From: a bacterium
GTDB taxonomy: Bacteria > Patescibacteriota > Minisyncoccia > Phycocordibacterales > Phycocordibacteraceae
Assembly: GCA_023267755.1 (NCBI GenBank)
Contig: JAHFMR010000004.1
Span: 8,535 to 72,534, forward strand
Length of the DNA stretch: 64,000 nt
Reading direction: 5' to 3'
Under the pieces are notes generated by a model. It was not told the origin of the DNA, made no database searches, and saw only the letters and a list, made by a program, of their open reading frames with translations. This document shows positions 4,434 to 61,089 of the stretch, in pieces; the stretch's first letter is position 1; the number at the start of each line of letters is the position of its first letter. The position numbers were made by a program, and so were the translations under genes.

Positions 4434-5558
4434 TTATGCGAGACCAATCGCTTTCTTGAACATCATACGGATAGTGTCGCGCTCTGCGGTTGCTTCAGGA
4501 GTGTGATAGGTCGGGTCGAATATCGCGTCCATATGTATCTCTGACTTACCGTTTGCAAGCGGCGCTCCGAGAGCAATCCGGCGCAGACAATACGCGATAG
4601 CGACACCCGAGAGCGTCGCGGCGTCGCCGAGCTGCGGCCACGAGTAGAGCGTCTGCCCCACTTCTTTAAGCGAGAGCAACATCCGCGGGACAACGTGGTC
4701 AGCGCCGGCAATCTTGGTAGCGAGTTTAGGCAAATCAGACGGCGGGAAGGTCTTAAATTCTTCAAGCGTCAGGTCTCCAAGCGCGCCGTTGAAGAGCTGT
4801 GTCGAACGATCGAGATCGAAGCGCTCGATCTCGACGATGACTCCGTCGCCGTTGTCAGTGGCCATCACCACCGGGATCCCCTTCTCACGCGCGGCGAGCC
4901 GGAGGCGAATTTTTATCTCTAGATTGTCGGTCTCTTCGATAAGCACATCGGCTCCTGAGAGAAATTGGTCCATCGTCTCTTCAGTGACACCCGCCCCATA
5001 GACCTCTATCTCTGCGTAGGGATTCAGCTGGTAGATATATTCGCTCACGAGGTCAGTCTTCTTGCGTCCGAGGGAGAGGAAGTCGAGGCGGATGCGGTTT
5101 AAGTTCGAGGGAGAGACTTCGTCGGGATCGGCGATCTTGATGCGGCGCGCCCCGCCCATAAGCGCCGTTGTCATCGCGCCGTGACTACCCACCGAGAGGC
5201 CCGCGTACGCGACCGAGAGATTATAAAACTTTTTCTGTTCTTCCTTGGTGATGATGTTGCGATTGCGAGCAGTGCGGATCTCCTGGTGCTCTTCGTGCGG
5301 CAGGTAGTGTGCGAGTGTCTTGTTCCACGGGAAGTAAAACCACTCGCCTACCTCTTCACCGGACTTCCCTGCTGCATACTCTTCCGAGAATGCCTTTACC
5401 TCGGCGCTATGGTCCTTGATAAATTTGAAGCGCGGATTGCGGATGAGGAAAAGATCCTCGAGGAGGAGATCGTAGCGATCAACAACAGTACCAGGTTGGA
5501 GGCGATCACGAAATGCGGCAAACGATTCTTGCGTACGATCGAGTTGTTCCGGTTTCAT
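4434..5558 (-). CDS. ThiF/MoeB/HesA-family E1-like adenylyltransferase with ~110 aa N-terminal extension
   Basis: YAGLSVGSHGAMTTALMGGARRIKIADPDEVSPSNLNRI nucleotide-binding Rossmann region typical of the ThiF family. Confidence 0.6.
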   Translation of the reverse strand: MKPEQLDRTQESFAAFRDRLQPGTVVDRYDLLLEDLFLIRNPRFKFIKDHSAEVKAFSEEYAAGKSGEEVGEWFYFPWNKTLAHYLPHEEHQEIRTARNRNIITKEEQKKFYNLSVAYAGLSVGSHGAMTTALMGGARRIKIADPDEVSPSNLNRIRLDFLSLGRKKTDLVSEYIYQLNPYAEIEVYGAGVTEETMDQFLSGADVLIEETDNLEIKIRLRLAAREKGIPVVMATDNGDGVIVEIERFDLDRSTQLFNGALGDLTLEEFKTFPPSDLPKLATKIAGADHVVPRMLLSLKEVGQTLYSWPQLGDAATLSGVAIAYCLRRIALGAPLANGKSEIHMDAIFDPTYHTPEATAERDTIRMMFKKAIGLA

Positions 5559-21250: not shown

Positions 21251-22030
21251 CTAGCAGGCGATGTTCTGATCAATAGCAGTCGAGCTCGCCTCGTACTGCA
21301 CAATCCAGATTGGACTTCCTGTGATGAAGCTCTTGCCGGTCACGCACGCATTAATCGCGCCTACCTGGCTCTTGACCCCCACTGGTAGCCAGACCGGGAT
21401 GAGCACATCTTGTCCTGCTATCTTCTGCACGGGGATGAAACCGCTTCCGGCAATCGTCCGCCACATACGCGGCATCGAGTAGATGCCGACGCGGAGCCCC
21501 TTTGTATTCAGATAATCAATCGCGCCTTGAATTGTCGCGGCGTTTACCGCCGTATCCTTCGACCAGCTATTGGCCTCTTCGATATCGAGCCACCAGAGCG
21601 CCGACTGCACCCCCTTCTCTAGCGCGTAGCGGTAGGAGTGTTCTGCCGCCTGATAGCCGTAGTTGTAGCCCTGACACGCGGTGGGCTCTGCGCCCGCCTT
21701 CGTACCACTGCACGCCTTCGGACTGCCCACGTGCCCTTCTACCGTGCTCCCATAGGGCGCATTCAAATTCATATACACGGTCGCGGCGGTGTGCGAGGCA
21801 AACTTCGTCCACGCATAGCCGGCTGAGAGCCGTTTATTATCGACGAACGCCTTCCCTCCGGTGACGCCCACAATCGCGAAGCCAAACGACTCCGCGGGGA
21901 AATAACGCGTGCTGAAGGTTACGTCAAAGCCGAGATTGCTCGGCACATACGGACTCCCCACCGCCGCCACAGCGAGTGCGGGCAATGCCGTAAAAAGAAC
22001 TCCGAGTGCCGCGAAAATCACTTTCCTCAT
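21251..22030 (-). CDS. Secreted glycoside hydrolase family 25-like muramidase
   Basis: Signal peptide; GFDVT, FAIVGVTGGKAFVD, WWLDIEE and PIWIVQYE resemble the GH25 motifs GIDVS/FAIIKATEG/WLDVE/WIAQY. Confidence 0.5.
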   Translation of the reverse strand: MRKVIFAALGVLFTALPALAVAAVGSPYVPSNLGFDVTFSTRYFPAESFGFAIVGVTGGKAFVDNKRLSAGYAWTKFASHTAATVYMNLNAPYGSTVEGHVGSPKACSGTKAGAEPTACQGYNYGYQAAEHSYRYALEKGVQSALWWLDIEEANSWSKDTAVNAATIQGAIDYLNTKGLRVGIYSMPRMWRTIAGSGFIPVQKIAGQDVLIPVWLPVGVKSQVGAINACVTGKSFITGSPIWIVQYEASSTAIDQNIAC

Positions 22031-22045
22031 TACTCAAGTATACCT

Positions 22046-22265
22046 CTCAAGCAAAGCAAAAGCCGCCCTAGTGGGCGGCTTTTGCTTTGCGTGTTGCCCG
22101 AGGCGGTACTGTACCTGTCACTACAGGCAAACCAAAGGTTCTTTCAGCATCGTTCTCCCCTCTTTAGCGATGGGGGCCGGTATGGGTCTGGTTTGAGATG
22201 TTCAAAGAATTTTCAATGGGTTTGGCCAGATGAGAAGACGGAGCGGTACAGTACCAAGAAATCAA
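22046..22265. repeat. Intergenic repeat copy A (begins with perfect GC-rich hairpin 22051..22090; shares 60-nt block with copy B)
   Basis: Shared block ccaaaggttctttc[ag]gcatcgttct.ccctc..tagcgatgggg.ccggtatgg.tc and GGTACTGTACC palindromes. Confidence 0.6.
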
Positions 22266-22367
22266 CATGCCATATTTTTAGTATCAAAATTAAAACAACG
22301 AAACTTAATACCCATATCGCAACGTCCGGCGCCCAACTTGATGCCTTACCTAGTAAGCTTCGTTTAC

Positions 22368-22688
22368 TCAACTCAACTCAACTTCACCCGTTAATTTGCC
22401 CAGGGTATCCTTATTTCTCATTGCGGTTTTCTTGAGATCATCATTATAAAGATAAAGAGGTGTTGGAATTAAGAGTAAAAGTGCACTGACCAAAAAACGA
22501 ACAAGATTATCTAGCGGGATGAGATTTGAATTGAATGTGGCTATAACAAGAAGTGTCGCTGCTAAACCGGCCATCAATGGCAAAAGTGCCATTCTCGAAC
22601 GAACAGTCGACTGAAGCATATCGAGATGCTCCTTGACGACTATCCACTGATGCTCCTTCGGTAGACGGTCAAAATATTTCTTGTCCAT
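22368..22688 (-). CDS. Small 2-TM membrane protein, low-GC (foreign) gene
   Basis: ORF track; AT-rich codon usage distinct from the window; translationally coupled to upstream ORF. Confidence 0.45.
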   Translation of the reverse strand: MDKKYFDRLPKEHQWIVVKEHLDMLQSTVRSRMALLPLMAGLAATLLVIATFNSNLIPLDNLVRFLVSALLLLIPTPLYLYNDDLKKTAMRNKDTLGKLTGEVELS

Positions 22689-22942
22689 TAGACTTCTTTG
22701 TTCACTTCTTCATTCTTTGGGTACCCCCATTTGCCACGAACGATATACCAAAATAGCCCCTCTACTGCGCCCATAGAGAAAACAATGACTACATTTGTTA
22801 TTACAAAAGACCCGAAATCAAACGAATAATAAAGAGCTGTATTTGCAATCAGTAGAAATAAACCAAAAAAGAAAACATATAGAGATTTAACTACTCTATA
22901 CCACCTCTTATCTTCATATTCCGCGATTACCTTGTTTTTCAT
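22688..22942 (-). CDS. Small 2-TM membrane protein, low-GC (foreign) gene
   Basis: ORF track; AT-rich; start/stop overlap with 22368..22688. Confidence 0.45.
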   Translation of the reverse strand: MKNKVIAEYEDKRWYRVVKSLYVFFFGLFLLIANTALYYSFDFGSFVITNVVIVFSMGAVEGLFWYIVRGKWGYPKNEEVNKEV

Positions 22943-23035
22943 TTTGTTATTTATATTCTACCAAGAGTTCCTTTTGTCCACCACACTGCTTCCAACATTG
23001 TTGGATTTGATGCTGGCTAGGGTCTCTAGCGATGC

Positions 23036-23290
23036 GACGCAAAAGCCGCCCTTTCAGGGCGCCTTTTGCTAACGTGATGCCGAGCGGTACTGTACTGCCC
23101 TTGATGGGGGACGGTACTGGTTCCTGGCGTCACAACCGTGTTGCCCGTGTCGGTACTGTACCCGCCACAATAAGCAAACCAAAGGTTCTTTCGGCATCGT
23201 TCTTCCCTCCCTAGCGATGGGGACCGGTATGGATCGGCTTTCAATGTTTTCAAGGATTTTTGATCAATTTCGAGCTCGAGAAACGGGAGC
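23036..23290. repeat. Intergenic repeat copy B (hairpin 23038..23068; composite of the copy A block and the copy C block)
   Basis: Contains gatggggga.ggtactggttcctggcgtcacaaccgtgttgc (as in C) followed by the A-type block. Confidence 0.6.
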
Positions 23291-23350
23291 CGGTATCGTA
23301 CTGAGATTTTATTATGTTAATCTCACAAATATCGTGATCATCCGAAAACT

Positions 23351-24259
23351 ATGACCGACTTCGAGACCCGGCTTACTGCGTACATCCACAAGATTCTCGC
23401 CCACGAAGGCGATGACTGGAGCGTTTCATCGCCACCTCAGGGTATGAGCAGCAGCGTCTTCTTCCTGACATTGGGAGGCATGGAATATGCGGTGAAGTAC
23501 GGTGTGGATGCGGCTAAAGATGTACCCGCCATCGCACTCATCCGTGATCACGGCGCACGCGTCCCGGTGCCCGAGGTCGTGGAAAGTTTTGTGTTCGAAG
23601 AAGTGCCGATAGTGGTGATGAAGCGGATCGTGTTTCCCCTACTCGAGAGCGTACCAGTCGCGGATCTCCCGGCGTATCTTCCGAGCATGCTAGATCTCAT
23701 GGAGGAACTCCACACGATTACCAACCCAACACCAAAGATAGTGTCTGCGCCGGGTGAGCTTGCTTCGTGGAAGGAATATCTGCTCGCGCAATTCGACGGG
23801 CGCACAATAGACTGGGAAGAAATACTCGGGCGCAAAGCCTTGGATCGCGCGCTCGTTGCGGATGCGCTCGACCGATTCCGCGCGCTCCTCGCCGCAAGCG
23901 ATCTCGAGCTTTCGTCTTATACGCTTCTCCATACGGACTTCAACCAGCGCAATCTCTTCGTCGATCTGGCCACAAAGACTATCAGTGGGATTGTTGACTG
24001 GGAGGACGCGGTCTTTGGCGATTCCATCTATGATTTTGCGCGGATACGCATGTTCCTCTGGCATTTCGACCTGCCTGAAATGGCCATCTCCGTGTACTAC
24101 AACCGGACGCGTTATAACGATACGGAGAAGCAGCGCGAATGGTTGTATTTAACGGCGCGAGTCATCCAATACCTTGCCTGGTATTCGGAGGAAGATACGA
24201 CATTCAATACCTCCCGAATCGCGTTGCACCAGAACTATCTGCGGGCGATCCGGTGGTGA
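23351..24259 (+). CDS. Aminoglycoside-phosphotransferase/choline-kinase-like protein kinase fold enzyme (APH family)
   Basis: LLHTDFNQRNLFVD (HxDxxxxN catalytic loop) and GIVDWEDAVFGD (IDWE/DFG-like) motifs. Confidence 0.65.
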   Translation: MTDFETRLTAYIHKILAHEGDDWSVSSPPQGMSSSVFFLTLGGMEYAVKYGVDAAKDVPAIALIRDHGARVPVPEVVESFVFEEVPIVVMKRIVFPLLESVPVADLPAYLPSMLDLMEELHTITNPTPKIVSAPGELASWKEYLLAQFDGRTIDWEEILGRKALDRALVADALDRFRALLAASDLELSSYTLLHTDFNQRNLFVDLATKTISGIVDWEDAVFGDSIYDFARIRMFLWHFDLPEMAISVYYNRTRYNDTEKQREWLYLTARVIQYLAWYSEEDTTFNTSRIALHQNYLRAIRW

Positions 24260-24290
24260 TAATCTGTGGCCGCCTCGGATCGAGGTGGTA

Positions 24291-24448
24291 GCAAAAGCCG
24301 CCCATAAGGGCGGCTTTTGCGTACGTGATGCACTACAAGAGTACTTCTCGTTTTCTAACTCGCTTCGCTCCTAAGAAAACAATGTCGCCGGGCGGTACTG
24401 TGCTGACCCTGATGGGGGAAGGTACTGGTTCCTGGCGTCACAACCGTG
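24291..24448. repeat. Repeat copy C (terminator hairpin 24291..24320 plus the 60-nt block shared with B), immediately 3' of the intron-containing tRNA
   Basis: gcaaaagccgccc-ataa-gggcggcttttgc; block ctgatgggggaaggtactggttcctggcgtcacaaccgtgttgc. Confidence 0.6.
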
Positions 24449-24769
24449 TTGCGGGGGCCGGAATCGAACCGGCGTCTGGAGGTTCTTCTGTACCTACTGT
24501 TTCCAGCAGGAATGGACTATCCCATAATCCTATAAGGATTCTCCCATTATAGTCTCTGAACCTTTCCTCCGCCTCAGGCGGAAGACTTGGCTGCTGATTG
24601 CCGAATCTTCTCGTTTTTCACGCATTCGCGCCCACCCTTTCGAGTCACGTTGTAGCATGAGAAGCTCTCACGGTATTCCAGCAATTTAGAGAGTTTTTCC
24701 ACTACCCGTTACCGGATAGGGTCACGTTATTCACATGAGCCTCCCGAGGTACCTCTCCTCTACCCCGCT
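24449..24769 (-). tRNA. Initiator-like tRNA-Met (anticodon CAT) interrupted by a group I intron; exons 24769..24735 and 24484..24449
   Basis: Spliced: AGCGGGG-UA-GAGG-AGAGGUA-CCUC-G-GGAGG-CUCAU|AA-CCUCC-AGAC-GCCGG-UUCGAUU-CCGGC-CCCCGCA-A; 3' half identical to E. coli tRNA-fMet (CCGGCCCCCGCAA), 1:72 mismatch. Confidence 0.75.
24485..24734 (-). ncRNA. Group I self-splicing intron (~250 nt, no ORF) in the tRNA anticodon loop after U36
   Basis: Exon ends in U, intron ends in G; IGS GUGA pairs with UCAU; core-like CUAAAUUGCUGG...CGAAAGGGUGGG (J3/4-P4) and CAGAGACUAUAAUGGGAG (J6/7-P7) motifs. Confidence 0.65.
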
Positions 24770-32583: not shown

Positions 32584-32997
32584 TTACGGACAGACCGTCG
32601 CCGCTGCGAGAGCGGTTGCTGAGGTGGTCGCCGTTCCGAGGCTGTCCACACAGTAGTTCGTTCCTGCTGTCGCGATAAGATCAGCAGCCACTGCGTAGGC
32701 AGTACCATTTGCAGCTTCGTTGCAGTGGACTGCGCCGCCAGAACCGTTTGCTGTATCAGCAGCAGTTGTCTGCTTGGTAACAGTCGCGTCCCCACAGAGG
32801 CCGATGTACGAATTGGCATGATCGCCGTAGTAGAGCTGTGCCTGGGTGCGGATGCCGTCGAGATCGCTCATCACCGCTGCATCGTTGCCCTTGGAACGAG
32901 CGGTGTTAAGCGAGGCGAGGACGACCGCCGAGAGGACGCCGATGATGGCGATGACGACGAGAAGTTCGATAAGAGTGAAACCGCGTTGTTTGTTCAT
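32584..32997 (-). CDS. Type IV pilin
   Basis: MNKQRG-FTLIELLVVIAIIGVLSAVVLASLNTARSKGNDAA. Confidence 0.85.
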   Translation of the reverse strand: MNKQRGFTLIELLVVIAIIGVLSAVVLASLNTARSKGNDAAVMSDLDGIRTQAQLYYGDHANSYIGLCGDATVTKQTTAADTANGSGGAVHCNEAANGTAYAVAADLIATAGTNYCVDSLGTATTSATALAAATVCP

Positions 32998-33034
32998 AGT
33001 ATGTTTGTTACGTAATTATATTTCTTAATAAGAG

Positions 33035-33490
33035 CTACGGGCAAGATGTAGCACCAGGAGACATAGTCGTCGGTGACGTCGACGCCATTCCTGAGGCATC
33101 AACGCACCAGTACTGAGTAGCGTTGCTAACCGTCTTGGAATTCAATTTTACTTGAATAGCGTACGCAGTAGCACTCGAACCACAAATCGGCGCTGTACCG
33201 CCCGCAGCGCTCTGCGCTGCGGTTACCGCCTTAATGATTGTTGTATCAGCCCACAGCGTGCCAGCGCCAGCACAGGCACTTACAGTACTGCCATAACTAT
33301 TGCTGTTGGAGCCATAGAAAATCTCCGATTGTGTTTGGATCGCAGCAAGATCGGACTGGATTGCCGCGTCGTTCCCCTTGGAACGGGCGGTGTTGAGTGA
33401 AGCGAGGACGACCGCCGAGAGCACGCCGATGATAGCGATGACGACGAGAAGTTCGATAAGAGTGAAGCCGCGAGAACGATTTTTGTACAT
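33035..33490 (-). CDS. Type IV pilin (close paralog of 11437..11895)
   Basis: MYKNRSRG-FTLIELLVV...; shared C-terminal YAIQVKLNS...WCVDASGMASTSPT. Confidence 0.85.
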   Translation of the reverse strand: MYKNRSRGFTLIELLVVIAIIGVLSAVVLASLNTARSKGNDAAIQSDLAAIQTQSEIFYGSNSNSYGSTVSACAGAGTLWADTTIIKAVTAAQSAAGGTAPICGSSATAYAIQVKLNSKTVSNATQYWCVDASGMASTSPTTMSPGATSCP

Positions 33491-33566
33491 AAAATTATAT
33501 GGGGAGTTAATAATTGCATTGTACGCCCTAGAGGACCCCGCTAGAACCAGGGGTGTGGATAGCTCT

Positions 33567-34772
33567 TTAGATAGACCCTGCGAGGTTATAGATCGGGAGC
33601 AGTATGGCAGCAAGCAAAATGGCGACCCCAAGACCGAGAAGGACAATCATAATCGGCTCGATAAGGCCGACTAGCGTGTCGACGGAGTTCGATACTTCAC
33701 GATTATAGAACTTCGCAAGCGTCGTGAGGATCTGTCCGAGTTCGCCGGTCTCTTCCCCTACCCTTGTCATCGCGACCATAATGCCAGGGATTTCTGCATG
33801 CCGGCCGAGCGCGTCGCTAATAGGTAACCCTCCCTTCACGTCTGAAGCGACCTGATGCAATACGCGCGAGTACACGACATTGTCGACAACCGAGCCGGTA
33901 ATATCTATTGCCGCGATGACCGAGACGCCTGAGAGAAGCATCGTCGAGAAGTTGTCTGCGATGCGCGAGAGATACAGTTTCTTATACAAATCACCGACAT
34001 ACGGGATCGATAATTTAATCCCGTCGAGAACGTTCTTCCCGTCCTCGGTCTTTCCGAGTTGCCACACGTACACGCCGACAGCTGCAAGTGCAATAAGTAT
34101 GAAAATACCGTACTGAATGATGAGATTGGAGAAGCCGATGACAATCTTTGTGTAGATAGGTATATCCTGCCCGGAATCGAGTAGAACTGCGCTAATCTTC
34201 GGTATCACGAGCGTAAGCATCAATGTCATCACACCAAAGAAGACAAAGATAACGAAGATTGGATAAATAAGCGCATTTTCAGCCTTGCTCGCAAGGTCGT
34301 ATGAGCGATCGAGATAATCAGCGAGATAACTGAAGGTCTGCGAAAGCTTGCCTGACTCTTCTCCTGCACGCACCATATTCACGTAGAACGTCGAGAAGAT
34401 ATCGGGGTGCCGCGAGAGCGCTTTACTGATAGGGCTTCCCCCTTGCAGGTCGTCCCCGATTGTCGAGAGGATGCCTGCGAGCTTCGCATTGCCAACCTCA
34501 GAGGCGAGAAGACGGAAAACGCGCAGCGCCGATACCTGCGCTTCAAACAGGGTCGCAATCTGACGCGAGAGGATAACTATTTCTTTATTCGATACGCGCT
34601 CAAGAAATGAGAATTTGAGTTCTAAAAATGAACGCTCCTCGGCAGACGTAATCGCTGAGATGATGAGATTACGACGTTGAAGAGCGGGGATCGCGGCTTC
34701 CTTTGAAGGGGCTTCGATAGTCCCCTCTCGCTCGTGCCCATCCTGATCAATCGCGTGATACTTAAAAAGCAT
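33567..34772 (-). CDS. pilC: Type IV pilus inner-membrane platform protein
   Basis: Two T2SS-F (GspF) domain repeats, 401 aa. Confidence 0.85.
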   Translation of the reverse strand: MLFKYHAIDQDGHEREGTIEAPSKEAAIPALQRRNLIISAITSAEERSFLELKFSFLERVSNKEIVILSRQIATLFEAQVSALRVFRLLASEVGNAKLAGILSTIGDDLQGGSPISKALSRHPDIFSTFYVNMVRAGEESGKLSQTFSYLADYLDRSYDLASKAENALIYPIFVIFVFFGVMTLMLTLVIPKISAVLLDSGQDIPIYTKIVIGFSNLIIQYGIFILIALAAVGVYVWQLGKTEDGKNVLDGIKLSIPYVGDLYKKLYLSRIADNFSTMLLSGVSVIAAIDITGSVVDNVVYSRVLHQVASDVKGGLPISDALGRHAEIPGIMVAMTRVGEETGELGQILTTLAKFYNREVSNSVDTLVGLIEPIMIVLLGLGVAILLAAILLPIYNLAGSI

Positions 34773-58532: not shown

Positions 58533-59519
58533 TTGAATATACACGGCTTCGGAAATGACACTTCTGTGGATAGTCTTCCGGCGTATATACTAGGCGATAT
58601 GTCCACCCGCCTCAGCCGTGCTCTCGTTGCACTCGTCTTCGCGCTCGCCGCGGGCGGCGCGGGGTATACACTCGGAAACGATAGTGCTCCCAGACAGGTC
58701 GCAAGTGTCGCGATACCAGTACAGACCGTCACTGTGCCACTTACTGGCACTACTCGTGTCATATACAGTCTTGATCAGAAACGTAATGATAAAGAGCTTA
58801 TTGCGCTCATCGACGCGGCGAAGACGCATATCTATTTTGCTATCTACGAATTCACACTCAAGGATGTCGCCGATGCACTCGTGGCGGCCAAGAAACGCGG
58901 TGTCGAGGTCCGCGGGCTCGTCGACGCCGGTGAGAGTGCTAAGAGCTACGATAAGCCGATTATGAACGAGCTTGCTACTGCCGGTATTCCTATCGAAACA
59001 CAGAAGCACGCGAGTGGTAATGGCATTATGCATATCAAGCTTCTCGTCACCGACTCGGCGTATGCACTCGGAAGCTACAACTGGACCAGCTCCGCGACAA
59101 ACGTGAACGATGAGATTCTCGAAATAGGCACCGACCCAGGTCTCCGGCAGGCATATGAGAATATCCTGACGAGACTACTCGATGCCTACAAGGGCAACAG
59201 CGTGGCCGCGGGAGCGGCCACGAATATTTCTATCGGCACTATCGATTATACTGAAGCCGCTAAACACATCGGCGCTACCGCGAGCGTGCGCGGCACGCTC
59301 GTCGAGGCCTATACCTCGGCGAGCGGAACGGTCTTCCTCGATTTCTGTAAGAGCTACAAGACCTGCCCTTTCTCGGGTGTCATCTTCGCTGACGATGTAA
59401 AAGCATTTGGCGACCTCTCTTCCCTCGCCGGCAAGACTATCACCCTCACCGGCTCCATCTCCTCCTATCAAGGTAAAGCCGAGATCGTCCTCTCCGACCC
59501 GAGCCAGCTCACAAAATAG
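58533..59519 (+). CDS. Membrane-anchored phospholipase D-like (HKD) nuclease-family protein
   Basis: HKD motif MHIKLLVTDSAYALGSYNWT; N-terminal TM. Confidence 0.6.
   Translation: MNIHGFGNDTSVDSLPAYILGDMSTRLSRALVALVFALAAGGAGYTLGNDSAPRQVASVAIPVQTVTVPLTGTTRVIYSLDQKRNDKELIALIDAAKTHIYFAIYEFTLKDVADALVAAKKRGVEVRGLVDAGESAKSYDKPIMNELATAGIPIETQKHASGNGIMHIKLLVTDSAYALGSYNWTSSATNVNDEILEIGTDPGLRQAYENILTRLLDAYKGNSVAAGAATNISIGTIDYTEAAKHIGATASVRGTLVEAYTSASGTVFLDFCKSYKTCPFSGVIFADDVKAFGDLSSLAGKTITLTGSISSYQGKAEIVLSDPSQLTK
59479..59519. repeat. Left copy of 41-bp imperfect direct repeat flanking the mazF-like cassette (right copy 60027..60067)
   Basis: aaagccgagatcgtcctctccga[ct]ccgag[ct]cag[ct]t[cg]ac, 37/41 identical. 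Confidence 0.8.
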
Positions 59520-59540
59520 ATTGAGTGATAAAATCATCGT

Positions 59541-59930
59541 ATGAAAGATTTTGACTCTTGGAACGAAATTAAAAAGAAGATCGATAGCGAGACTGATGCC
59601 CCAGACAGATTCCCAAAAGAAGGTGAAGTGTGGATGAGTAATCTTGGCCGGAATGTCGGATTTGAACAGAATGGCGGTGGCGATAATTTCTCACGACCAA
59701 TTTTAGTTATCAAAAAATTCAACAACCATATGTTTTGGTGCGTTCCTCTCTCGACAAAACAGAAGCCGCTCGACTTCTATTTCAATTTTACTGATCCGCA
59801 CAATCAGAAAGTCTCTGCTATTCTCGCGCAAATCCGATTGATGAGTGTGAAGAGACTGCGACGAAAGCTGTACGAACTTAACAGTGAGATTCTTGATGGA
59901 ATCAGAACGGCGCTCAAATCGTTTCTATGA
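59541..59930 (+). CDS. MazF/PemK-family endoribonuclease toxin-like protein in a low-GC cassette; no adjacent canonical antitoxin
   Basis: EGEVWMSNLGRNVGFEQNGGGDNFSRPILVIKKFNNHMFWCVPLSTKQK matches the MazF/Kid fold signature. Confidence 0.65.
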   Translation: MKDFDSWNEIKKKIDSETDAPDRFPKEGEVWMSNLGRNVGFEQNGGGDNFSRPILVIKKFNNHMFWCVPLSTKQKPLDFYFNFTDPHNQKVSAILAQIRLMSVKRLRRKLYELNSEILDGIRTALKSFL

Positions 59931-59937
59931 AAACTCG

Positions 59938-59963
59938 AAGCCCCGCCAATTGGCGGGGCTTCT
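59938..59963 (+). terminator. Hairpin after the mazF-like gene (weak, no T-tract)
   Basis: GAAGCCCCGCC-AATT-GGCGGGGCTTC. Confidence 0.4.
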
Positions 59964-60011
59964 CGGAGCCTTGCGGCACTTTATACCCACAGTGTAGCGC
60001 GATACTATCCT

Positions 60012-60419
60012 GTGTCAAGCGAAGCCAAAAGCCGAGATCGTCCTCTCCGATCCGAGTCAGTTGACGCGGTAGACACTTCGTGCTTTACTCACGCTGGACG
60101 ATTTGATCCGCAATCTAAGGAGACGACTGTGAGTGATAGCGACGAAGTCGCCGACGGCCAAGAACTGGCTATCGAGATGGCACGTGAACTGTACAAAGCA
60201 AACCCCGACCATGATCTGTTGCGCCTGTTCCCGAAGACCGAATTGACCGATGAGGAGTACGATCCGATCTGGGAGGAATTCCAGCAGCACTTCGGCAAGC
60301 CTGGCATCAGCCGCGAAGTGCGCGCCACCTACCCCGCGCAGGCATACTTCTGGGCGAAATACTTCCTCGCTCTGAAGAAAGCTGTCGAGGAACTTGCTCC
60401 ACAGGCCCTATCCGCCTGA
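60012..60419 (+). CDS. Acidic hypothetical protein (start uncertain; 5' end overlaps the right direct repeat)
   Basis: ORF track only. Confidence 0.3.
   Translation: MSSEAKSRDRPLRSESVDAVDTSCFTHAGRFDPQSKETTVSDSDEVADGQELAIEMARELYKANPDHDLLRLFPKTELTDEEYDPIWEEFQQHFGKPGISREVRATYPAQAYFWAKYFLALKKAVEELAPQALSA
60027..60067. repeat. Right copy of the 41-bp direct repeat
   Basis: See 59479..59519. Confidence 0.8.
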
Positions 60420-60522
60420 TGATGTCTTATCCGTGCGCCGACTCAAGGGTCGGCGCGTTTTGTTTATCTCGGCAGAAGTTGCGTATTCGCTCGTTTTTAT
60501 GCTATAGTAGCGAGTACTTCCA

Positions 60523-61089
60523 GTGGCTACTGACCGAATTCGCATCAATAACGAGATCCGCGCACAAGAACTGCGCGTTATTGGCGCACAGGGTGAAAAC
60601 TTGGGCGTCCTCTCCCTCGAGGCCGCTCTGGCGGCCGCCAAGACCGCCGGGACCGATCTTATCGAAATTTCGCCCTCGGCCGTCCCGCCCGTTGCGAAGA
60701 TTATGGATTATGGTAAATTTGAATACGAGCGCAGTAAGAAGGAAAAGGCAGCAAAAGCCAAGGTAAAAGTCTCGGAAACCAAGGAGGTCCAGATCAAGGT
60801 GGGTACCGGAGACGGCGATATGGCGCTGAAGGCTAAGAAGGCCGCCGAGTGGCTCGCCGAGGGCCACCGGGTGCGTGCCGAACTCTTCTTGAAAGGCCGC
60901 TACAAGGGTATGGAGGAGAAGTTCCTGAAGGATCGCCTTGAGAAATTTCTTCTCCGTGTCCCGTATGCTTATAAGGTCGCTGAGCCAATAGCGCGGAGCC
61001 CCAAGGGCTTTGCTGGCGTTATCGAGCGAGACCTGATAGCTCAAGCGAAGCGTGAGAAAGAATCCAAACCGAAAAATGAAAACCAATAA
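60523..61089 (+). CDS. infC: Translation initiation factor IF-3 (GTG start)
   Basis: [25 protein letters not shown]...[18 protein letters not shown]. Confidence 0.9.

Follow-up and report, generated by a model that had tools for sequence, protein, structure and literature searches.

MazF is a textbook type II toxin, that is, a protein toxin checked by a protein antitoxin, and in type II systems a co-transcribed antitoxin gene adjoins that of the toxin, usually upstream. In type III systems (ToxIN, CptIN, TenpIN), the antitoxin is a tandem repeat array encoded upstream of the toxin gene and on the same strand, with a terminator between the two, and it is the toxin that processes the antitoxin. 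The toxins of type I systems are hydrophobic peptides shorter than 60 aa. Here we describe a locus in a 64,000-nt stretch of contig JAHFMR010000004.1 (the window, to which all positions refer), where a gene for a 129-aa toxin of the MazF/PemK family (59541..59930, plus strand) is met at its 3' end by a predicted convergent gene for a small RNA (sRNA) of ~56 nt (59929..59984, minus strand), a candidate RNA antitoxin. Both lie directly behind a gene for a phospholipase D (PLD)-like nuclease. The combination of a MazF-family toxin with a convergent sRNA in place of a protein antitoxin seems to be a so far undescribed form of toxin-antitoxin (TA) system, and a full-text search of the literature found no description of such a toxin-sRNA module. 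That the module was inserted at this site and has the architecture of a toxin with a convergent sRNA is, in our opinion, highly probable.

The toxin was identified by its match to PF02452 (PemK_toxin), which scored 37.7 bits against a cut-off of 23.1 and covered the whole profile (positions 1-109 of 109); the MazF/PemK assignment made in a preliminary description of this DNA is thus sound. With the NCBIfam MazF equivalog model the score was 17 against a cut-off of 120, indicating that the protein belongs to a divergent subfamily and is no orthologue of E. coli MazF. Arg52 (in the motif FSRP) and Ser71/Thr72 (in LSTKQK) are invariant among 38-41 toxin homologues. In E. coli MazF the two motifs align with HRP and CTTQSK, and in B. 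subtilis EndoA FSRP aligns with VRP; the toxin thus keeps the catalytic Arg and Ser/Thr positions (Arg29 and Thr52 in E. coli MazF). It also has a conserved N-terminal extension of ~25 aa. Relatives are numerous: 828 proteins were found at E ≤ 1e-3, the best 120 of which are all ~129 aa long and 70-81% identical, and an exhaustive search gave 989 clusters (50% identity) at E ≤ 1e-10.

Upstream of the toxin start, an extended -10 promoter (TGATAAAAT, 59526..59534, plus strand) ends 6 nt before the ATG, and hence a leaderless toxin mRNA is predicted. In 37 of 63 distinct loci the pattern TGnTAnnnT stops at exactly this distance from the toxin start, and it was the sole conserved feature upstream of the toxin in a comparison of 80 metagenomic loci. 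A 10-bp palindrome, AAAATCTTTC-TAT-GAAAGATTTT, was also seen over the -10 box and the first four codons, for example in L035 and L038 (loci are cited by their L numbers). At least 7 of its 10 positions match in 19 of 50 distinct loci, the window having 7 of 10 at 59530-59552, so that the palindrome was rejected as a general feature; it may be an operator.

The toxin ATG comes just 21 nt after the PLD stop codon, and the sequences upstream of the toxin are unrelated among the 80 loci. Consequently, there is no protein antitoxin gene upstream, in agreement with the preliminary description. The upstream neighbour is the PLD tail in the window, L001, L032 and L077, a uppS-like gene in L037, and many other genes elsewhere; in L070, L072 and L080, tRNA genes end 18-41 nt before the toxin start. 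After the toxin gene, no open reading frame (ORF) was conserved across loci. We also considered a protein hidden on the antisense strand of the toxin gene and rejected it: each of the three antisense frames contains ~6-8 stop codons, and no conserved antisense ORF was found within the toxin gene among homologous loci.

The sRNA gene alone is linked to the toxin gene without exception. About 95 nt after the toxin stop codon are conserved in all 76 loci with downstream sequence, and 68 distinct loci share the conserved sRNA core. Its motif GCCGNAAGGCT[CT]CGAG occurs 78 times in the retrieved loci, always adjoining a MazF stop codon; in the window it occurs once, at 59977-59962 on the minus strand. 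The predicted sRNA of the window (AUAAAGUGCCGCAAGGCUCCGAGAAGCCCCGCCAAUUGGCGGGGCUUCGAGUUUUC) would run from ~59984 to 59929, with both ends predicted and the 3' end overlapping the toxin stop codon, and has the layout AUAAAGU-GCC(GCAA)GGC-UCCGA-terminator hairpin-GAGUUUUC. Its intrinsic terminator (59937..59962, minus strand) is a hairpin with an 11-bp stem of 100% complementary arms, a 4-nt loop and the tail GAGTTTTCAT. This hairpin had been noticed in the preliminary description and is real; what was overlooked is its role as the terminator of a conserved convergent sRNA gene. The sigma-70 promoter of the sRNA (59991..60018, minus strand) consists of TTGACA, a 16-nt spacer and TACACT, with 10 of 12 matches in a pattern scan.

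These signals recur at the other loci. The -35 box reads TTGACT or TTGACA in 65 of 71 distinct loci, the spacer is 16-17 nt long in 69 of them, and a TG-extended -10 box, such as TGCTATACT, is present in 59. The distance from promoter to core is fixed: the near-invariant ACAAAGU-GCC-GNAA-GGC-UCCGAGA begins exactly 13 nt past the -10 box and is followed by a GC-rich hairpin of 10-11 bp and a U-rich tail reaching into the toxin stop codon. The alignment of 68 sequences showed the invariant block A-AAAG-GCCG-AAGGCT-CGAGA, and RNAalifold found a GCC-GNAA-GGC hairpin and a 10-bp terminator stem, six pairs of which change compensatorily. Mean pairwise identity was 0.91 for the sRNA core, 0.889 and 0.555 for the second and third codon positions of the toxin, and 0.36 for the promoter spacer. 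The two strands differ in their signals. A U-tract follows the hairpin on the minus strand only, the plus strand always continuing with TCTCGGAGCC, and the loop of the small hairpin is GAAA, GUAA or GCAA (GNRA) on the minus strand versus UUNC on the plus strand. Stable tetraloops (GNRA, UUCG) are seen only when the minus strand is read, distant homologues included. No Rfam family was found for the sRNA: a search of 59400-60550 at E ≤ 10 gave weak terminator-like matches, with none close to a gathering score, nor was there a convincing match to the pemK and abiF motifs of Rfam in the same region.

More distant homologues retain the arrangement. In L115 and L118, whose toxins are 53% and 46% identical to that of the window, the promoter, a GCC...GGCUCCGAGA core and the terminator are all kept, the loop in L118 being UUUAUU. 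In L119-L121 (36-38% toxin identity) a convergent TTGACA-17-TATAAT-like promoter still stands directly after the toxin gene and precedes a hairpin-rich minus-strand RNA with GNRA or UUCG loops and a terminator, yet the RNA sequence differs. Since the distant homologues keep the architecture while the RNA sequence changes, toxin and RNA diverge together, as would be expected of functional partners, and their pairing is old.

The gene that precedes the module (58599..59519, plus strand) encodes a PLD-like (NucT-like) nuclease with a C-terminal OB-like domain and terminates with AAAGCCGAGATCGTCCTCTCCGACCCGAGCCAGCTCACAAAATAG. The protein matched PF13091 (PLDc_2) with 80.7 bits, and NucT models matched below their cut-offs. 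Its orthologues, 52-81% identical, were found in 31 genomes, and all 31 loci were retrieved. The closest are in metagenome-assembled genomes named Kaiserbacteria or Paceibacterota, of the Candidate Phyla Radiation (CPR), and the source organism is taken to be a Kaiserbacteria-like member of Paceibacterota. The 3' end of this gene is present twice. The left copy (59475..59519, plus strand) is the functional gene end and encodes KAEIVLSDPSQLTK and a stop codon; the right copy (60028..60072, plus strand), which encodes KAEIVLSDPSQLTR and a stop codon, is a second, orthologous version without function. A repeat search returned a 38-nt core (59475-59512 and 60028-60065, 89% identity, spacing 553), which, when read to the stop codon, becomes a repeat of 45 nt with 8 mismatches (82% identity) and an identical first stretch of 23 nt. 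An exact match of 23 nt inside 2.5 kb is far beyond chance, and the search revealed no further repeats of this kind within 5 kb of the locus. The preliminary description had therefore recognised a real pair of repeats, including the alternative PLD C-terminus ...QLTR that the right copy would provide, although its right-hand coordinates were 5 nt off and its count of four mismatches is true only for the 38-nt core. The greater AT-richness that it gave for the ~510 bp between the repeats was also seen, as a GC fraction of 0.405-0.425 over 59500-59899 versus 0.55-0.58 in the flanks. Both copies were unchanged in two independent assemblies, L112 (Logan) and L113 (ENA); hence, the repeat structure is not an assembly artefact or chimera.

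Related genomes provided the empty site. Among the 28 that also contain infC, 17 have a gap of only 32-65 nt between the PLD stop codon and infC with its promoter, and the remaining 11 hold 119-2637 nt of unrelated material in between, which makes the PLD-infC spacer an insertion hot spot. When 59420-59474, 60028-60072 and 60473-60560 of the window were joined, the product was colinear with six empty sites. The window thus holds two inserts, 59475-60027 and 60073-60472, ahead of the infC promoter and gene (60473..61089, plus strand), and the idea of an insertion put forward in the preliminary description is borne out. The first insert would be a laterally acquired unit of 553 bp, made up of one PLD-tail copy and a two-gene module of ~510 bp. 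As to what other Kaiserbacteria-like genomes carry in this spacer, we observed an insertion sequence in L020, a gene for a 716-aa LamG-like protein in L026, a gene for a protein of 170-190 aa without known identity common to L001, L004 and L010, and, in L011, a ParE toxin cassette accompanied by a duplicated PLD tail.

Repeats of the upstream sequence also flank the same cassette at unrelated loci, where they are 31-193 nt long and 77-90% identical: 31 nt in L108, 38-45 nt in the window and L032, 42 nt in L078 and L096, 105 nt in L053 and 193 nt in L037/L045. The right repeat begins at +85 to +257 nt after the toxin stop codon, depending on the locus, and is absent in L001 and L044. The longest repeat is the most informative about how the copies diverged. 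The right copy in L037 is the intact last 64 codons of uppS (193 nt, 87% identity), and it differs from the left one at 3, 2 and 20 sites in codon positions 1, 2 and 3, respectively, giving 20 synonymous versus 4 non-synonymous codons. Of the five codons that differ between the repeats of the window, four are synonymous (GAC/GAT, AGC/AGT, CTC/TTG, ACA/ACG) and one exchanges Lys for Arg (AAA/CGG). In the coding cases checked (L037, L053 and L032), both copies keep the stop codon. Since the differences are mostly synonymous and the stop codons are kept, the two copies have diverged as working gene ends in different genomes, which suggests that the repeats are two orthologous gene tails joined by recombination and not the footprint of a transposition.

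On the simplest account of its origin, the module would have come by recombination with DNA of a related genome that already carried it behind its own PLD gene. The donor's tail would have been imported along with it and would now end the PLD gene, the recipient's own tail being left as the right-hand repeat. The route may have been homology-anchored recombination with an illegitimate second junction, or else single-crossover integration of a circle formed by recombination between such repeats. The process that duplicates tails is not specific to the MazF module, as the ParE cassette of L011 at the PLD site also has a duplicated tail; the toxin of that cassette matches ParE_toxin, and no Pfam family was assigned to the 62-aa ORF next to it. 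The module begins at the outer margin of the toxin -10 box and stops 0-15 nt from the -35 box of the sRNA in L032, L033, L053 and the window. Such sharp boundaries need no dedicated mechanism, because junctions that cut the sRNA promoter would leave the toxin unopposed, and selection would suffice.

Several observations weigh against parts of this interpretation and are best considered together with its rivals. With regard to the repeats, L001 has the module without a right-hand repeat, so duplication is not obligatory; the repeat of L053 shows 6 synonymous versus 8 non-synonymous codons, making purifying selection less clear there; and either of the two tails in the window could be the native one. 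The insertion that duplicated its target, as originally proposed, would be a transposon-like cassette whose 45-nt repeats were identical at insertion and drifted later. Direct repeats that flank the insert exactly and begin with 23 identical nt, together with the existence of empty sites, are what such an event would leave. Transposases, however, make duplications of fixed length, whereas among loci with the same cassette the repeats vary in length and identity, and the right one lies at varying distances from the cassette end. In L037, 20 of 25 differences fall on third codon positions, and an unselected copy of 64 codons would have had to stay open with its stop codon intact. Given also that the unit has neither a transposase ORF nor terminal inverted repeats, and that two loci carry it with no right repeat, we consider target-site duplication very improbable. 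If a recombinase acting in trans had integrated the cassette site-specifically, as with integrons, IMEX or satellite elements, the gene tail would instead be an att site and the two copies attL and attR. This would suit the identical 23-nt core of the window, the use of the same PLD tail by the MazF and ParE cassettes with right copies starting within ~10 nt, the gathering of several cassettes in series at the PLD site and the cassettes found directly after tRNA genes. However, the duplicated segments come from unrelated genes (PLD, uppS and others), share no common sequence and reach 193 nt. No integrase is encoded within ~4 kb, the neighbouring genes being those for VKOR, DedA, DUF2127, FMN reductase, PLD and infC. 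Integron cassette features were looked for at the locus and not found: there are no GTTRRRY core sites at either boundary, no attC-like imperfect palindrome (the only hairpin is the terminator) and no nearby intI. In addition, a scan of viral contigs found no relatives. Site-specific integration is, in our estimate, distinctly unlikely.

As for the toxin and its partner, the hhalign probability against the single E. coli MazF sequence was 11.6%, although the alignment itself is sensible, and the AlphaFold2 model of the toxin, built from a 38-sequence alignment, had a pLDDT of 45 and was unusable; toxicity of the divergent subfamily is presumed. Conservation, tetraloops and the signals of promoter and terminator are the grounds on which the sRNA is predicted, and its 5' part shows no trans complementarity to the toxin ORF (mean z -0.06). 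The hairpin and core are equally conserved on the toxin strand and may be an element of the 3' untranslated region (UTR) of the toxin mRNA. The toxin gene could then be an orphan, with the conserved block serving as a 3'-UTR or terminator element, such as an autoregulatory cleavage or binding site, or the sRNA could regulate something else. MazF family proteins act on their own transcripts, as in E. coli mazEF; the block is contiguous with the toxin ORF, and conservation alone cannot assign it to a strand. Set against these points, -35 and extended -10 boxes at a fixed distance with a drifting spacer are the signature of a promoter directed at the toxin gene, the U-tract and the stable tetraloops belong to the minus strand, and distant homologues swap the RNA sequence yet retain the convergent promoter and terminator. 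Promoter conservation, the side of the U-tract, the loop type and the compensatory pairs thus favour a minus-strand RNA over a 3'-UTR element, and an orphan toxin seems to us rather unlikely. Still less can be said for the acidic ORF of 96 aa at 60129-60419 (plus strand), which had been proposed as an unconventional protein partner. It is small and acidic, and it adjoins the toxin gene on the same strand; yet tblastn found no homologue at 110 other loci, and its product matched no Pfam family. The sRNA gene and the right tail copy stand between it and the toxin, and other unrelated genes occupy its position in L032, L033 and L001. It lies in the second, unrelated insertion (60073..60472, plus strand, with boundaries from the empty-site alignment), ~400 bp of DNA outside the toxin module that fit exactly between the stop codon of the right tail and the -35 box of infC, and has its own ribosome-binding site, GTG start and terminator (60433-60458). 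We give practically no credence to its being the antitoxin.

The interpretation that we prefer is therefore that of a MazF-family toxin paired with a convergent sRNA. The toxin, a presumed endoribonuclease, would be read from the extended -10 promoter as a leaderless mRNA, and the sRNA, made from the strong sigma-70 promoter facing the toxin gene, would serve as its antidote. On the antitoxin role of the sRNA, which is predicted, our confidence is evenly divided; for the combined interpretation of insertion, toxin-sRNA architecture and antitoxin sRNA, we lean modestly in favour. The sRNA may bind the toxin protein directly, as type III antitoxins do, which would explain both that it evolves more slowly than the protein and that the two diverge together. 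Alternatively, it may pair with toxin transcripts extending past the hairpin: the hairpin lacks a U-tract on the plus strand, so that the sRNA would be fully complementary to any read-through transcript. The convergent geometry supports such antisense action but leaves the near-invariant RNA sequence unexplained, because cis-antisense pairing holds whatever the sequence. A type I-style block of translation initiation is unlikely, given the missing trans complementarity, and for the same reason we discarded trans pairing between the 5' part of the sRNA and the toxin ORF as its mode of action. With moderate confidence, we thus favour protein binding, possibly combined with antisense effects at the 3' end. 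A bolder proposal is offered tentatively, and with more doubt than conviction: the module may represent a new class of TA systems, widespread in CPR/Patescibacteria, in which a MazF-family RNase is neutralised by binding a single-copy, convergent sRNA of ~56 nt with a GNRA hairpin, with no protein antitoxin. Its minimal unit would be bounded by its two promoters, it would spread by recombination that swaps gene 3' ends, and addiction to the sRNA would guard it against deletion between the repeats.

Some observations at other sites touch on the same themes. We asked if the ParE cassette of L011 shares the sRNA and rejected this, as only a similar GC-rich terminator stem is present and the core motif is absent. 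The ParE operon itself, in which the 62-aa ORF comes first, has an extended -10 box, TGGTATGAT, that ends 6 nt before the ATG (5343-5410, minus strand), and it is preceded by a terminator hairpin whose stem (GAAGCCCCGCC...GGCGGGGCTTC) is nearly identical to that of the window. Cassettes that are leaderless and insulated by terminators may be common in these genomes. Elsewhere in the window, three diverged direct copies, 68-87% identical, were found at 22055-22213, 23038-23260 and 24290-24473. The repeat unit of this region (22030-24560) consists of a terminator hairpin (AGCAAAAGCCGCCC...GGGCGGCTTTTGC) and ~90-200 nt, and the copies bound two cassettes, one with two small minus-strand membrane ORFs and one with a 302-aa kinase/APH-like ORF, in the same pattern of a cassette between diverged repeats as at the MazF site; ARAGORN found no tRNA in this region. 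At 32584-33646 there are two tandem type IV pilin-like paralogues with a common N-terminal GFTLIELLVVIAIIG motif, and the 162-nt, 80% identical direct repeat there is thus an ordinary gene duplication. About 20 low-GC metagenome loci have a long inverted repeat with 99-100% identical arms (L056, with 295-nt arms at 496-790 and 2595-2889, L049, L046, L109, L042, L066, L106 and others), and the MazF module stands immediately on the inner side of one arm. Between the arms lie 1.4-2.6 kb of variable cargo, with methyltransferases and an HD-domain protein among the encoded products, and the arm folds like a structured RNA (z -6.4) with no Rfam family match; this element may be a carrier of the module in these low-GC lineages. 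LOOT RNA (RF03000) was found well above its gathering threshold near the MazF module in L069 (689-818) and L102 (2022-2144).

If a large, conserved MazF subfamily has indeed exchanged MazE for an sRNA, the division of TA systems into types I, II and III becomes blurred. The same toxin-sRNA pair is carried by hundreds of CPR genomes and can be tested directly from ~500 bp of DNA. As far as we know, almost nothing has been reported on the small RNAs of CPR bacteria, to which this pair would add a defined regulatory RNA. The repeats would show, in turn, how tiny selfish modules that have no recombinase enter streamlined genomes and leave the host gene unharmed, since the module brings a spare gene tail. 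Diverged tail repeats flag such events in metagenome assemblies, and in annotation a tail left behind can be misread as a target-site duplication or a fragment of a gene.

When the locus is compared with the known systems, it shares with type II MazEF/PemIK (Kid-Kis) a PF02452 toxin that aligns over its full length and has the catalytic Arg and Ser/Thr positions, and it is likewise a small addiction-type module, AT-rich and horizontally mobile. It differs in having neither a MazE/PemI gene nor room for one (21 nt here; a tRNA or an unrelated gene elsewhere), so that the adjoining, co-transcribed antitoxin gene of type II is missing, and in the ~25-aa N-terminal extension, the monocistronic leaderless gene and the convergent sRNA partner. 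Type III systems likewise combine an endoribonuclease toxin of Kid/MazF-like fold with an RNA partner, which is predicted here, and the RNA is conserved beyond what antisense action needs, fitting recognition by a protein. Unlike the type III arrays, the RNA is single-copy, downstream and convergent, with its own promoter; no tandem repeats were found in 59300-60500, and the toxin matches PemK and not ToxN models. The convergent type I systems (par Fst/RNA II of pAD1; txpA/RatA and bsrG/SR4 of B. subtilis) have the same overlap of 3' ends around one hairpin as is predicted here and a strong, constitutive-looking promoter of the antisense RNA, whereas the toxin here is a 129-aa protein of an RNase family, there is no complementarity to the translation start, and the RNA core is invariant in sequence. 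SymE/SymR and RalR/RalA are precedents for a nuclease-type protein toxin under sRNA control, but their toxins belong to other folds and families, SymR overlaps symE at its 5' end, and RalA works in trans together with Hfq. As regards the insertion, elements that supply replacement 3' ends (at tRNA/tmRNA-type att sites) and homology-facilitated illegitimate recombination similarly keep the gene intact through a substitute tail, with the displaced native tail staying as a diverged direct repeat; here, however, the unit is 553 bp long and has no integrase, and repeat lengths and target genes vary. The repeat pattern fits general recombination better than a dedicated site-specific system. Overall, the geometry of the module resembles that of convergent type I systems such as par of pAD1 and txpA/RatA, and its probable logic that of type III.

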